From a virus: a DNA stretch of 64,000 nucleotides. The stretch spans positions 32,001 through 96,000 of IMG/VR virus record IMGVR_UViG_3300021962_000023. One strand, given 5' to 3'. Shown one piece after another: positions 1-4,158 of the stretch; the first letter of the stretch is position 1; every line of letters begins with the position of its first letter. Under the pieces are notes generated by a model. The model did not search any database. It saw nothing but the letters and a program-made list of their open reading frames with translations, and was not told the origin of the DNA. Made by a program: the position numbers and the translations under genes.

Positions 1-2047
1 TCAATACACCATTGTTACCAACTTGGTTTGAAATGAATACATATGGAGGTCTACCAGTGAAGATACCCGTACCACCTCTAACTTGCGTTTTTCTATCACC
101 AAATACATCGTGATTAAATCCGAAACGAGGTTCAAAAAGTGTTTGTGTTTTTGGTAACACACCTGTATTAAATCTCAATCCACCTGCGAATGTCATTGCT
201 GATACCGCTGGATTTTCTAATGCAGTTTGTTCGAATGAAATAACTGCCGCTCTTAAACCAAAAGTAAACTTTAAGTTTTCAGTTGCTTGGAATTCATCTT
301 GTCCGTAAACATCCAATCTATCAGTTTTCAATGTTTGCATTGGGTCAACTGCTCCTGGTAATGCCGAATAACGGAATTGGAAACGAGCTGGAACTAATGT
401 AGAAGGTGCTCCACCATTTGCTAATGATTGATTAGCTGCTGTGTAGAAATCATTTAAACTATTGAAGATATAAACACCATTAGATGCTGGGAAGAATAAG
501 TTATTAGATTGATACTTCTCATAGTTGAAACCAAATGTTAAAGTGTGTTTGTCTGCATACTTTGTTAAGTTGTTTGTAATATGGAAAGTATTGTAATCTA
601 ACTTATTTCCTGGAGTGAATGGGTCAAAACCCACTGATGTAAGAGTTGTTGCACCATCTTTAATATCAATCGTTGGGAACATTTGAGAACGATACGCTCT
701 ATCCTCAATCTGCTTGTCATATCCAACGATTAAGTTATTATGTAATGTGTTTGATAATTTAGAGTTCAATTCCAATACATAAGAACGAGTGTTATCCATA
801 ATAATGTAACCACTATTTTGGAAACTCATTGCTAATGCCGAAGTTGTTCTATTACCAAATCCTGCAGATGTAGAGTTTGAAATATTAATCTCTGCATCAG
901 AATCATGTTGTACATAACGAGCCGTTAATTTATGCTTATCATTGATGTTCCAATCCATACGAATCAAAAACTTCTTTGATGTATTTGCGTTGGAATATCC
1001 TTCAAACGGACCCGTTGTGTAGTTAAACTTATCTTGCATAAATTTAGATAAGTCCGATAATTGTGTATAAGTTGGTCTACTAACTTGCGAACCTGTCAAT
1101 GGAGAACCTGTTGAAATCCAAGTTGTACCTGGTTCAGTTTTCTCAATTTGTTCGTAGTTACCAAAGATGAATAATTTGTTCTTAATGATTGGTGCACCTA
1201 AACGGAAACCTTGTACCTTCTCATCAAATTTGGATGCCGTTACTTTAGTTCCTCTAGCGTTATCACCTACATATGTAGAACTATTATTTCTTTGTGTTTG
1301 ATATACAGAACCTTCAATTTCGTTTGTACCACTTCGTGTTACTGCATTGATACCTGCGCCAGTAAACCCACTCTGACGAATATCAAAAGGTGCAATATTA
1401 ACCTGAAGTTGCTCAATCGCATCTAAAGAGATTGCCGATGCTCCCGTTCTACCACCTGCCTGTGCAGATGAACCTAAACCGAATCCATTATTGAATTGAG
1501 AACCATCAATTGTAAAATTGTTCAAACGAGAATCTTGTGCTCCGAAAGAGTTTCCGTTTCCGTTTGGATTGTATTTAGTAATACCATCGATTGTTCTTGC
1601 TCCCGTAATTGGAATGTTTTGTAAATCTCTACGAGTAAATTGTTGAGATGCACCTGTTCTTTCTCTCGATATAATATTGTTTCGAGTAGAAACTACAACA
1701 ACCTCTTTTAAGGTTTTGTTCTCATCAACTAATAAGAAATTCACATTTGATGTAATACCTAATTGAGTATTAACATCTGTAACTTCCTCTTTCTTCGTAC
1801 CAACAAATGTTGCTTGAATTGTGTAAGGTCCTCCTACTCTAACAGCAGGTAACACATAACTACCCAACTTATTGGTAGATGTAGAATACTTCGTACCAGT
1901 TGGAGTGTGTACTGCTTGGATTGTTGCTCCAACCAACACTTCGTTTTTCTCATTCTTTACAACACCTGAAATTGAGGAAGTGGTTACTTGTCCAAATCCT
2001 ACAAAAGCAGATACTGAAAGGAGAAGCGATAAAATCACTTTTTTCAT
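1..2047 (-). CDS. TonB-dependent outer-membrane receptor, Oar-like (carboxypeptidase-regulatory-like domain, plug, beta-barrel); 3' end beyond window; missing from ORF track
   Basis: Translated by hand from ATG 2047: MKKVILSLLLSVSAFVGFG|QVTTSSISGVV (signal peptide followed by Gln), NNFTIDGSQFNNGFGL, ISLDAIEQLQVNIAPFDIRQSGFTGAGINAVTRSGTN (plug motif). The same frame at the window edge reads FTGRPPYVFISNQVGNNGVL. Confidence 0.93.
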   Translation of the reverse strand, partial: MKKVILSLLLSVSAFVGFGQVTTSSISGVVKNEKNEVLVGATIQAVHTPTGTKYSTSTNKLGSYVLPAVRVGGPYTIQATFVGTKKEEVTDVNTQLGITSNVNFLLVDENKTLKEVVVVSTRNNIISRERTGASQQFTRRDLQNIPITGARTIDGITKYNPNGNGNSFGAQDSRLNNFTIDGSQFNNGFGLGSSAQAGGRTGASAISLDAIEQLQVNIAPFDIRQSGFTGAGINAVTRSGTNEIEGSVYQTQRNNSSTYVGDNARGTKVTASKFDEKVQGFRLGAPIIKNKLFIFGNYEQIEKTEPGTTWISTGSPLTGSQVSRPTYTQLSDLSKFMQDKFNYTTGPFEGYSNANTSKKFLIRMDWNINDKHKLTARYVQHDSDAEINISNSTSAGFGNRTTSALAMSFQNSGYIIMDNTRSYVLELNSKLSNTLHNNLIVGYDKQIEDRAYRSQMFPTIDIKDGATTLTSVGFDPFTPGNKLDYNTFHITNNLTKYADKHTLTFGFNYEKYQSNNLFFPASNGVYIFNSLNDFYTAANQSLANGGAPSTLVPARFQFRYSALPGAVDPMQTLKTDRLDVYGQDEFQATENLKFTFGLRAAVISFEQTALENPAVSAMTFAGGLRFNTGVLPKTQTLFEPRFGFNHDVFGDRKTQVRGGTGIFTGRPPYVFISNQVGNNGVL

Positions 2048-2558: not shown

Positions 2559-2590
2559 CAAATATACAAAAAATATTTATATTTGCCAAG
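2559..2590 (-). promoter_or_regulatory. Bacteroidota sigma-A-type promoter
   Basis: CTTG-N20-TATATTTG on the minus strand. Confidence 0.75.
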
Positions 2591-3605
2591 TCCTTAACCC
2601 AAATTTATTAAAAGTAAATGGCTGATTGTATCCAATTTTTAATTTATCCAATTCTTTTATTACTTCATATTTTGTATTATTCGGGCAATAAAAGAAAATA
2701 AACCCACCACCACCTGCTCCACTTATTTTACCACCGGTAGCCCCATGTTTAAGTGCGGTATTGTATAATTTTTGAATTTCTGATGTTGTTATTCCACTAG
2801 CTAATTGAGTTTTTTGTTTGAATCCGTAATCCAATACCTCACCCAACTCTTCTATCTTTCCTCTAATTAAACAATCCTTTATAAGTTTTGCTTGTTCTAC
2901 CAATCCATGCAGAGATAGTAACGATGTCTTATTATCCTCTTCGATTTTCTTAACTTGTTCTTCCAATACATCCGAGCTCTTTCGGGTGAAATTTGTAAAA
3001 TAAAGAACGATATTGTTTTCCAATTCATCTTGTACTTTATCTTTTATACGAAGTGGATTAACTATCACATCATCTCCCTTAAACTCCATATAATTCCATC
3101 CACCAAATGCGGCAGCATATTGGTCTTGCTTTCCACCATTCTCTTTCAATTCATTTCTTTCGATTTGAACTGCCATATCAGCAATATCATATTCTCCTAA
3201 AGGTAAATTGAATAATTCCATATAAACACCTATAATCGAAACTATAAGAGTTGATGATGTTCCCAGTCCACTACCCGTTGGTACATCTTGATATGAAACT
3301 ATATCACAACCAAATGGTTCTATTTTAAATCGTTTACAAATGTGATTATGAGTTGCTTTAAAGAGTTTTAATCCATATGAACAATCTAACTCACTACTGA
3401 AATCGTGCTCTTCAAATTCATCCTTATTTACCCACTTAAATGTAATTTTAGTATCATCTCTTAATTCTAAAGATGTGTGTGTAAATAAACGAATAGTTGT
3501 ATTGATTACTGCTCCAGTATGATTTTTTGTATAAGATGGCATATCAGTACCACCACCACCAAAACTAATCCTGAACGGAACTTTGCTCCTGTAAATTTTC
3601 TTCAT
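2577..3605 (-). CDS. hddA: GHMP kinase, D-glycero-alpha-D-manno-heptose-7-phosphate kinase-like
   Basis: SKVPFRISFGGGGTD, DVPTGSGLGTSS, GGKQDQYAAAFGG, GGKISGAGGGGF. Likely start is MKKIY at 3605. Confidence 0.85.
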   Translation of the reverse strand: MKKIYRSKVPFRISFGGGGTDMPSYTKNHTGAVINTTIRLFTHTSLELRDDTKITFKWVNKDEFEEHDFSSELDCSYGLKLFKATHNHICKRFKIEPFGCDIVSYQDVPTGSGLGTSSTLIVSIIGVYMELFNLPLGEYDIADMAVQIERNELKENGGKQDQYAAAFGGWNYMEFKGDDVIVNPLRIKDKVQDELENNIVLYFTNFTRKSSDVLEEQVKKIEEDNKTSLLSLHGLVEQAKLIKDCLIRGKIEELGEVLDYGFKQKTQLASGITTSEIQKLYNTALKHGATGGKISGAGGGGFIFFYCPNNTKYEVIKELDKLKIGYNQPFTFNKFGLRTWQI

Positions 3606-4158
3606 CCTCTGGGTTTCCATTTTCTGCATACCAATTTTTTACATTTCGTTCTCCAACTAATAAGAAGAAGCAATTATAACACAATGCTCTAATGTTTTCT
3701 AATTTTCTATTATTAAGATTACCATCTAAAAAATCAATCAATAGTGGCATTTTTCCATCAGTAACTCTTTCTTCGCTGAATCCACAACTTGAACATACTT
3801 TTGGTAGGTATCCACTATCAAACAATTTGTTTTTGAATTTGAATAGAGGATATTTTAAATGCTTTCCTGCAATTAAATCATCGATGTGATATTTTTTGTT
3901 TTTGATTTTTTTGGCTCTCTCAATACCAATACCATATGGATTTTTTAAATCTTCAAAAATACCATAAAGTTTAGCATATTTCTTATAAGTGTTATAAGAG
4001 ATACCCAATGTTCGGGCTGCTTCGAATGCTGAACGTGATTTTTCTTGTGCCGCTTTTATTTGTGATTCTAATATAGGTTTGGCACCCAACCCTCTTTTTG
4101 TAATTCTACTTGTTTCTTCAATGTTTGGGAAGAATCCTTCCACTTCTTCGTTTTCCAT
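3565..4158 (-). CDS. HTH plus catalytically degenerate HNH/zinc-finger protein
   Basis: N-terminal SAFEAARTLGISYNTYKKYAKLYG (HTH-like). C-terminal CxxC..LLIDFLDGNLNN..ENIRALCYNCF, with both canonical His replaced by Phe. Confidence 0.7.
   Translation of the reverse strand: MENEEVEGFFPNIEETSRITKRGLGAKPILESQIKAAQEKSRSAFEAARTLGISYNTYKKYAKLYGIFEDLKNPYGIGIERAKKIKNKKYHIDDLIAGKHLKYPLFKFKNKLFDSGYLPKVCSSCGFSEERVTDGKMPLLIDFLDGNLNNRKLENIRALCYNCFFLLVGERNVKNWYAENGNPEDEENLQEQSSVQD

Follow-up and report, generated by a model that had tools for sequence, protein, structure and literature searches.

A gene for an Oar-like TonB-dependent outer-membrane transporter occupies the left edge of a 64,000-nucleotide window (the whole stretch of viral DNA that was analysed) and continues beyond it. 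The window spans positions 32001-96000 of the IMG/VR virus record IMGVR_UViG_3300021962_000023, hereafter C1, and is therefore also denoted C1:32001-96000. We regard the transporter gene as a genuine, functional and host-derived accessory gene of an uncultured, T4-like jumbo phage of Bacteroidota from a lake, whose product most likely imports a nutrient, probably phosphorus, in infected cells; we assign this reading a probability of roughly 0.55. Four lines of evidence bear on it: the integrity of the gene within a phage genome, the selection acting on it, its orthology to bacterial transporters and the association of those bacterial orthologues with a candidate Pho box.

The analysed record comprises 198,534 bp, is rated complete by CheckV and contains a T4-type Gp23 capsid gene. 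A nucleotide search against known phages returned no match. Within the window, calling of open reading frames (ORFs) detects the transporter as a minus-strand frame at 2-2047 that starts with an ATG at 2047 and stays open to the window edge, giving 682 aa. The original prediction, made from the letters of the window, had described this frame as an Oar-like TonB-dependent receptor of at least 682 aa in a phage gene array. In the whole record, the gene is complete and uninterrupted: it covers C1:30778-34047 on the minus strand, ends with a stop codon at C1:30778 and encodes a protein of 1089 aa (P0002) in a Gp23-bearing, T4-like genome. Neither a frameshift nor a premature stop lies past the window edge, and the flank holds no junction into host chromosome. 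Instead, about 30 kb of co-oriented, GATC-free phage genes, with GroEL first, follow beyond the transporter gene. Of the 225 called ORFs, 210 are on the strand of the transporter.

The encoded protein has the features of a complete plug-and-barrel transporter. Pfam identifies a CarboxypepD_reg domain (PF13620) at residues 25-106 (E 6.7e-15) and an Oar-type barrel (OMP_b-brl_4/PF25183) at residues 236-1020 (E 3.6e-55). The signal peptide, previously proposed to be intact, looks so by inspection: it shows a Sec-type layout of MKK, a hydrophobic core and GFGQ that is the same in all homologues. At the other end of the protein, the C-terminal beta-signal RYIFGK is conserved, with F1087 invariant across 47 sequences. 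An AlphaFold2 model built from 47 homologues predicts the barrel fold at high confidence (mean predicted local distance difference test (pLDDT) score 86.7; predicted template modelling (pTM) score 0.82). Disorder is confined to the signal peptide and to the linker formed by residues 110-124, where the pLDDT drops under 50, in keeping with the presence of a TonB box. The top Foldseek matches of this model in the PDB are all plugged TonB-dependent transporters (FusA 4zgv, YddB 6ofr, PirA, PfeA and Cir), and the alignment to FusA runs over the full length of the protein (1063 columns, E 2e-33).

The Oar subclass of TonB-dependent transporters is defined by a CarboxypepD_reg N-terminal extension (PF13620/PF13715) (PMC6434023). 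We assign the phage protein to this subclass, and not to SusC, because it combines the CarboxypepD_reg N-terminal domain with an Oar-type barrel and has neither a SusD partner nor a SusC signature: no SusD gene was found beside the phage gene or at the loci of its host orthologues, and the NCBIfam models, SusC included, gave no match to the transporter. The Pfam Plug model (PF07715) did not match at E <= 0.01, and searches of PHROGs and of PDB sequences returned nothing for the transporter. TonB (TonB_C) and ExbB were looked for in the phage genome and not found; the phage would therefore rely on the TonB-ExbB system of its host.

The gene appears to be phage-resident and selectively maintained. 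The original prediction had pointed to a strand and a GATC depletion common to the gene and its neighbours, and this depletion extends to the entire genome: the tetranucleotide is absent from all 198.5 kb, where ~560-700 copies would be expected. The transporter gene has none, against 11-14 expected, whereas the twelve closest cellular orthologues contain 6-14 each. Across the related phage loci L005-L084, avoidance of GATC is total (for example in L005, L029 and L041), partial (L013 and L022) or lacking (L011, L035 and L037), and it differs even among phages with a common gene order. Composition as a sign of recent transfer proved uninformative, GC and third-position GC (GC3) being nearly equal in host and phage copies.

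Ratios of nonsynonymous to synonymous substitution (dN/dS) lie at 0.07-0.13 within phage clades and at 0.08-0.12 within host clades. The plug is the most constrained region, with 0.043 in phage pairs and 0.019 in host pairs. The barrel strands are similarly constrained in phages and hosts, and only the signal peptide and the N-terminal domain are somewhat relaxed in phages. There is no sign of an arms race in the barrel loops, because the non-strand barrel regions evolve alike in phages (0.134) and hosts (0.135). Taken together, these ratios bear the signature of a working transporter, unlike that of a passive decoy on the cell surface or of a passenger gene in decay. Synonymous divergence (dS) from the host orthologues is ~1.5. 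The view of the gene as a long-term phage resident thus agrees with its purged GATC sites, with this divergence and with the diversification of the phage copies under purifying selection.

These data also bear on the suspicion that the gene is an artefact or a passenger, that is, a chimeric assembly, host contamination or a recent capture decaying without function. The GC content of the gene (0.359) is slightly above that of its neighbours (phage ORF mean 0.313, sd 0.039), and the GC skew is weaker at window positions 1-2000. The GC deviation, however, corresponds to a z of only 1.2 (17th of 127 ORFs), and the gene is free of GATC, unlike host copies. Separately assembled contigs show the same synteny, some of them being complete genomes with terminal repeats, and the ORF is intact with a dN/dS of ~0.1. 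Chimerism and host contamination are ruled out by the GATC counts, the synteny and the composition, and we consider the explanation as a whole barely credible.

The closest cellular proteins (74-76% identity) come from metagenome-assembled genomes (MAGs) of Sediminibacterium-type Chitinophagaceae from lakes, followed by those of Flavobacteriaceae (55-62%) and then Saprospiraceae and Spirosomataceae, an order that tracks taxonomy. The phage gene and its cellular relatives appear to form one orthologous group, because in each of five host genomes a single match reaches 59-75% identity, with the next paralogue far behind at 32-40%. The Sediminibacterium-type orthologues (for example DBOB01000022.1 and JAOASM010000031.1) have the same length and architecture as the phage copy; they differ from it in having GATC sites, other neighbours and no upstream hairpin. 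Comparison with host families, as had been suggested, places the phage copies inside the Sediminibacterium-type clade of the tree, and the phage probably infects Chitinophagaceae of the Sediminibacterium type. The approximately unbiased (AU) test rejects one common origin for the phage copies as a whole (p = 0.0003), because the L011 type pairs with a host clade as its sister; once L011 is left out, one phage clade passes the test (p = 0.22). Since the test rejects a single phage clade, at least two captures from hosts are indicated. The L011 type comprises three contigs of 14-23 kb (L011, L012 and L017) with a normal GATC frequency, whose transporter is sister to one Sediminibacterium clade; this lineage looks like a separate, more recent capture.

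A lead on function comes from a member of the orthologous group that has been studied in a bacterium. In Flavobacterium johnsoniae, Fjoh_3841 was described as an orphan transporter with only pf13620 that is induced under phosphate depletion only (Lidbury et al. 2020, PMC8115612, Table 1). Its transcript rose with a log2 fold change of 7.69 (~200-fold), and the protein increased strongly in both the cellular proteome and the exoproteome (PMC8115612). The supplement of that study equates Fjoh_3841 with A5FD66 and gives a mass of 119.95 kDa, and the surrounding genes encode a B12-independent methionine synthase (Fjoh_3839), a 40.5-kDa protein (Fjoh_3840) and a peptidase S41 (Fjoh_3843) (PMC8115612). 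The F. johnsoniae member of our group (P0318, ABQ06852.1) likewise has a mass of 119.95 kDa and sits between Meth_synt_2 and MesX on one side and MFS and Peptidase_S41 on the other. P0318 is Fjoh_3841, because mass and neighbours are the same. Synteny in F. tructae was of no help in confirming this, the context there being different; the F. johnsoniae locus itself settled the matter. Along their whole length, Fjoh_3841 and the phage protein share 60% identity; Fjoh_3841 combines PF13620 with an Oar-type barrel and, like the phage gene, is an orphan with no SusD or lipoprotein partner. In contrast to the phage copy, it sits on a chromosome and is preceded by a Pho-box-like repeat and a sigma-A promoter, in the place of which the phage has a hairpin and an A/T-rich leader.

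That repeat is widespread upstream of the cellular orthologues. A direct repeat with an 11-bp period, TTAAC-N6-TTAAY, precedes the gene in 9/13 Flavobacteriaceae, 4/12 Sediminibacterium-type and 6/24 other orthologues, where chance alone would give 0.1-0.4. The Flavobacteriaceae repeat immediately precedes a TAnnTTTG box, in the place of the -33 element (Flavobacterium loci with the candidate box: L098-L103, L114, L155, L165 and L167; L251-L264). The genome of F. laiguense contains just nine copies of the strict form TTAACA-N5-TTAAC, and four of these sites lie 37-53 nt upstream of genes for an OprP-like phosphate porin, a PhoU-like protein, a sensor kinase and a paralogous Oar-like transporter. 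Counting this paralogue, two Oar-like transporters of F. laiguense have the candidate box ahead of them. A literature search found no published Pho-box consensus for Bacteroidota or Flavobacteriia. On this genomic pattern, TTAACA-N5-TTAAC is very probably the Pho box of Flavobacteriia, and we put it forward as a candidate.

Among phages, the transporter behaves as an accessory gene. A relative with 70-97% identity is present in at least 96 IMG/VR contigs, spread over five or more genomic contexts, and a related capsid gene is found in 502 contigs. The flanks of the carriers share many genes with C1, and the tested carriers include complete, Gp23-bearing records of 321 kb and 274 kb, which places the gene in phages. 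Isolate phages in INPHARED contain no relative except for one 6-kb faecal contig at 32% identity. A complete and colinear relative of 201,940 bp (G010), whose capsid protein is 88% identical, is without the transporter gene, as are four large partial contigs. Where C1 has the order GHMP kinase, p66 (a 66-aa protein), Hc1-like protein, transporter and GroEL, G010 has GHMP kinase, a 253-aa gene, p66 and GroEL, so that the Hc1-like gene and the transporter are both missing. The Hc1-like gene adjoins the transporter in 11 phage loci and in 0 cellular loci. Judged by gene order, the unit gained or lost in the C1 lineage consists of the Hc1-like gene, with its host-type promoter, and the transporter. 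We interpret the transporter as an accessory, mobile cassette, because it is absent from a colinear complete relative and present in at least five contexts. Terminator-like hairpins on both sides of the gene (the second at C1:30730-30755), presence or absence among relatives and nesting among host orthologues are all marks of a moron or auxiliary gene.

Two further observations concern the spread of such genes. L128 (CAYNGR010000116.1), a 10-kb contig from a 'Cyanobium' MAG, is a mis-binned phage fragment of the same group: it contains p66, the Hc1-like gene, the transporter and the phage genes that come after it, and is free of GATC. A second Oar-like transporter, 38-39% identical, is found in other related jumbo phages, namely in L074, L077-L079, L081, L083 and L084, on contigs of up to 274 kb. 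It too is preceded by a hairpin and T-run, and its sister group in the tree is another set of Bacteroidota/Chitinophagaceae copies, 37-38% identical to the C1 transporter.

The region upstream of the gene differs systematically between phages and bacteria. The terminator that had been proposed at 2091-2118 is real: a hairpin of the sequence GGGGTACA-TGAAAG-TGTACCCC is followed by TTTTTT. A hairpin with a T-run ~25-50 nt before the ATG is present in 36/45 distinct phage upstream regions versus 5/70 cellular ones, and the phage stems have many differing sequences. The A/T-rich leader TTATTTWWWAA is found in 39/71 phage copies versus 0/69 cellular copies. Hairpin and A/T-rich leader together go with the gene in nearly all phage contexts. 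In C1, the leader motif ATTTTTTAACAA hardly occurs elsewhere in the genome, and ATTTTTTAAC, considered as a general phage promoter, was ruled out, as it has 2 occurrences only in the genome.

Three classes of promoter-like motif could be defined in the phage. The sigma-A type, TTTG-N18-22-TAnnTTTG, precedes GroEL and the Hc1-like gene as well as nine or more others; the Bacteroidota sigma-A-like form TTTGG-N19-21-TAtaTTTG occurs 19 times on the gene strand, for example at C1:30665-30700 before GroEL. TATAYTTAT has 23 occurrences, 16 of them upstream of ORFs. The third motif, ATATTTATA, resembles a T4-type late promoter: 19 of its 26 gene-strand copies lie within 60 nt upstream of an ORF, many before structural genes. 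The core of this late-like motif, TATTTATA, is present in the leader of 22/71 phage copies. The only recognizable promoter upstream of the C1 transporter is the sigma-A-type promoter of the Hc1-like gene (Table 1). Expression may follow one of three routes: read-through or attenuation from the Hc1 promoter, weak late-type initiation within the leader, or a signal that escaped recognition. The joint gain or loss of the Hc1-like gene and the transporter would fit the first of these.

Table 1 Features of the transporter gene and its upstream region. Positions are those of the window
Feature	Position	Strand	Remarks
TonB-dependent transporter gene, first 682 codons	2-2047	minus	Remaining 1,223 nt past the left window edge
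Beta-barrel, first part, residues 241-682	2-1327	minus	Barrel runs on outside the window
Plug domain, residues ~125-240	1328-1675	minus	Lowest dN/dS; structural alignment to plugged transporters
TonB box LKEVVVV, residues 113-119	1691-1711	minus	Conserved in phage and host copies
CarboxypepD_reg N-terminal extension, residues 25-106	1730-1975	minus	PF13620; hallmark of the Oar subclass
Signal peptide, residues 1-20 (MKKVILSLLLSVSAFVGFGQ)	1988-2047	minus	By inspection; low-confidence N-terminal helix in the model
A/T-rich leader, 43 nt, hairpin to ATG	2048-2090	minus	TTAAC..AAAAC..TTAAC, degenerate Pho-box-like repeat
Intrinsic-terminator-like hairpin and T-run	2097-2118 and 2091-2096	minus	Directly upstream of the transporter
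Hc1-like (histone H1-like) gene, 56 aa	2129-2299	minus	PF07432 match marginally above the threshold (23.7 bits)
Bacteroidota sigma-A-type promoter TTTG-N20-TATATTTG	2320-2351	minus	Ahead of the Hc1-like gene

How the transporter might serve the phage can be outlined from these features. The host Sec machinery would export the protein, the host beta-barrel assembly machinery (BAM) would insert it into the outer membrane via the C-terminal beta-signal, and host TonB-ExbBD would energize it through the TonB box. Once in place, it would open or sustain the outer-membrane uptake step of the phosphate-starvation kit, with a substrate that probably contains phosphorus, and this uptake would feed replication of a 200-kb genome. 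The exchange of the host Pho box for a hairpin, T-run and A/T-rich leader in most phage copies would take expression off host phosphate sensing. We hold a more specific version only tentatively: freshwater T4-like jumbo phages would have captured a PhoB-regulon transporter at least twice and uncoupled it from PhoB, and it would move as a hairpin-leader-gene cassette that forces starvation-type phosphorus uptake.

Several observations weigh against a role in phosphorus import. The phosphate link derives from one omics study of a 60%-identical orthologue and from a Pho box that is itself a candidate. An intact box was detected by pattern scan in 2/61 phage copies, 27 nt before the ATG in L058 and ~200 nt upstream in L017 (L011 has a host-like triple TTAAC-N6 repeat ~200 nt upstream), and the C1 leader contains the degenerate repeat only. 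PhoH and PstS were looked for in the phage and not found. Inspection of the flanks for partners revealed no phosphatase or lipoprotein lid in the host or phage context of the transporter, and no polysaccharide utilization locus (PUL) either. The neighbourhoods of the host orthologues hold housekeeping genes only (FAD oxidoreductase, PIN and TrmB-like), with no PUL clue to the substrate. As had been noted from the window, there is no visible promoter between the terminator and the ATG: the 43-nt spacer has none of the three motif classes. G010 lacks the gene, which makes the transporter dispensable, and the conservation of plug and TonB box would also be compatible with replacement of a host receptor.

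The last point leads to the second of the two roles that had been proposed at the outset, superinfection exclusion or receptor remodelling, in which the host orthologue would be an abundant surface protein that this phage or its competitors use as a receptor, and the phage variant would replace, mask or dilute it, or act as a decoy on debris or vesicles, keeping later phages from productive adsorption. TonB-dependent transporters are common phage receptors. Receptor remodelling of this kind has been put forward for outer-membrane proteins of phages (bioRxiv 10.64898/2026.10.24.761521). Phage and host versions diverge by ~25%, with a diverged signal peptide and N-terminal domain, and the gene is accessory and mobile between contexts, as are many exclusion morons. 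A passive decoy, however, would have no need of a plug (dN/dS 0.043), TonB box and beta-signal, all of which the phage copies keep as strictly as hosts do; phage copies show no faster evolution than host copies in the non-strand parts of the barrel; and a newly made barrel presumably could not clear existing host receptors within one infection cycle. Exclusion is a live alternative, although an unlikely one in our estimate. Import is favoured because plug and TonB box are strongly conserved, the loops are not accelerated and the orthologue belongs to a phosphate-starvation regulon.

Export in the manner of Oar, with the transporter carrying a protein of the phage or of its host out through the outer membrane, seems considerably less likely still. 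Oar of Myxococcus xanthus has been implicated in secretion of the protease PopC, and it resembles the C1 transporter in its signal peptide, CarboxypepD_reg N-terminal extension, plug with TonB box and large barrel (PMC6434023). The likeness established here is one of domain order. The two leading structural matches of the model, FusA and YddB, act on proteins as substrates. Yet no conserved partner gene stands beside the transporter across five contexts, nothing in the phage case points to export, Oar-type secretion is documented in one system alone, and regulation of the orthologous group by phosphate in bacteria points to scavenging.

Upstream of the transporter lie genes for the 56-aa Hc1-like protein, p66, a GHMP kinase and an HNH endonuclease; past its far end follow GroEL, a cytidylyltransferase-like protein, a cupin, a ferredoxin, a GH19 endolysin and ThyX. 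The phage GroEL (C1:29045-30664, minus strand, phrog_5725, 539 aa) has its own host-type promoter and is 93% identical in G010. The GHMP kinase, cytidylyltransferase-like protein, cupin and 2x[4Fe-4S] ferredoxin that flank the cassette (window 2577-3629, minus strand; C1:27466-28567) suggest sugar-nucleotide metabolism of the heptose type, the cytidylyltransferase-like protein being labelled heptose-1-phosphate adenylyltransferase-like in PHROGs.

Cyanophages carry the phosphate-acquisition genes pstS and phoA under host PhoB control. The same logic would apply here: an uptake gene of the host Pho regulon eases the phosphorus limit on genome replication. The cyanophage proteins act in the periplasm or at the inner membrane and their genes often keep pho boxes, whereas the C1 transporter is predicted to act in the outer membrane and most phage copies of its gene have lost the box. 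TonB-dependent receptors of phages are already on record. The huge phage Mar_Mega_1 carries a 'SusC' TonB-dependent receptor (PMC9723777), and a 22-stranded receptor of Lak phages is included in a catalogue of 1,603 huge-phage outer-membrane proteins, some of which adjoin phosphate-acquisition genes (bioRxiv 10.64898/2026.10.24.761521). Like the C1 transporter, the Mar_Mega_1 and Lak receptors are complete plug-and-barrel transporters of large Bacteroidota phages, and they have been read as uptake genes or as receptor remodelling. The Mar_Mega_1 protein is the sole viral structural match in BFVD (E 1e-29); it is of the SusC type rather than the Oar type, with ~10% identity. Compared with the phages of these receptors, the C1 phage has a different host group, freshwater Chitinophagaceae, is T4-like and has a genome of 198 kb, just below the 200-kb cut-off of the catalogue, and its transporter has a bacterial orthologue tied to a phosphate-starvation regulon. 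What is new for the C1 locus is the complete gene with its GATC and selection evidence, together with the insertion-deletion unit, the hairpin-leader cassette, the independently confirmed orthology to Fjoh_3841 and the Pho-box evidence.

Outer-membrane barrels of phages have been catalogued only recently. The transporter described here has a nameable counterpart, Fjoh_3841, in a genetically tractable model organism with a known inducing condition, phosphate depletion, which makes the choice between uptake and exclusion directly testable. A by-product is the candidate Flavobacteriia Pho box. The family is abundant, as the numbers of viral contigs with the gene and with the related capsid gene indicate. 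If the gene does raise phosphorus uptake, this would have a bearing on nutrient cycling in lakes. On the more specific reading given above, it would be a phosphorus-acquisition gene that acts at the outer membrane, not in the periplasm, and regardless of the phosphate status of the cell.

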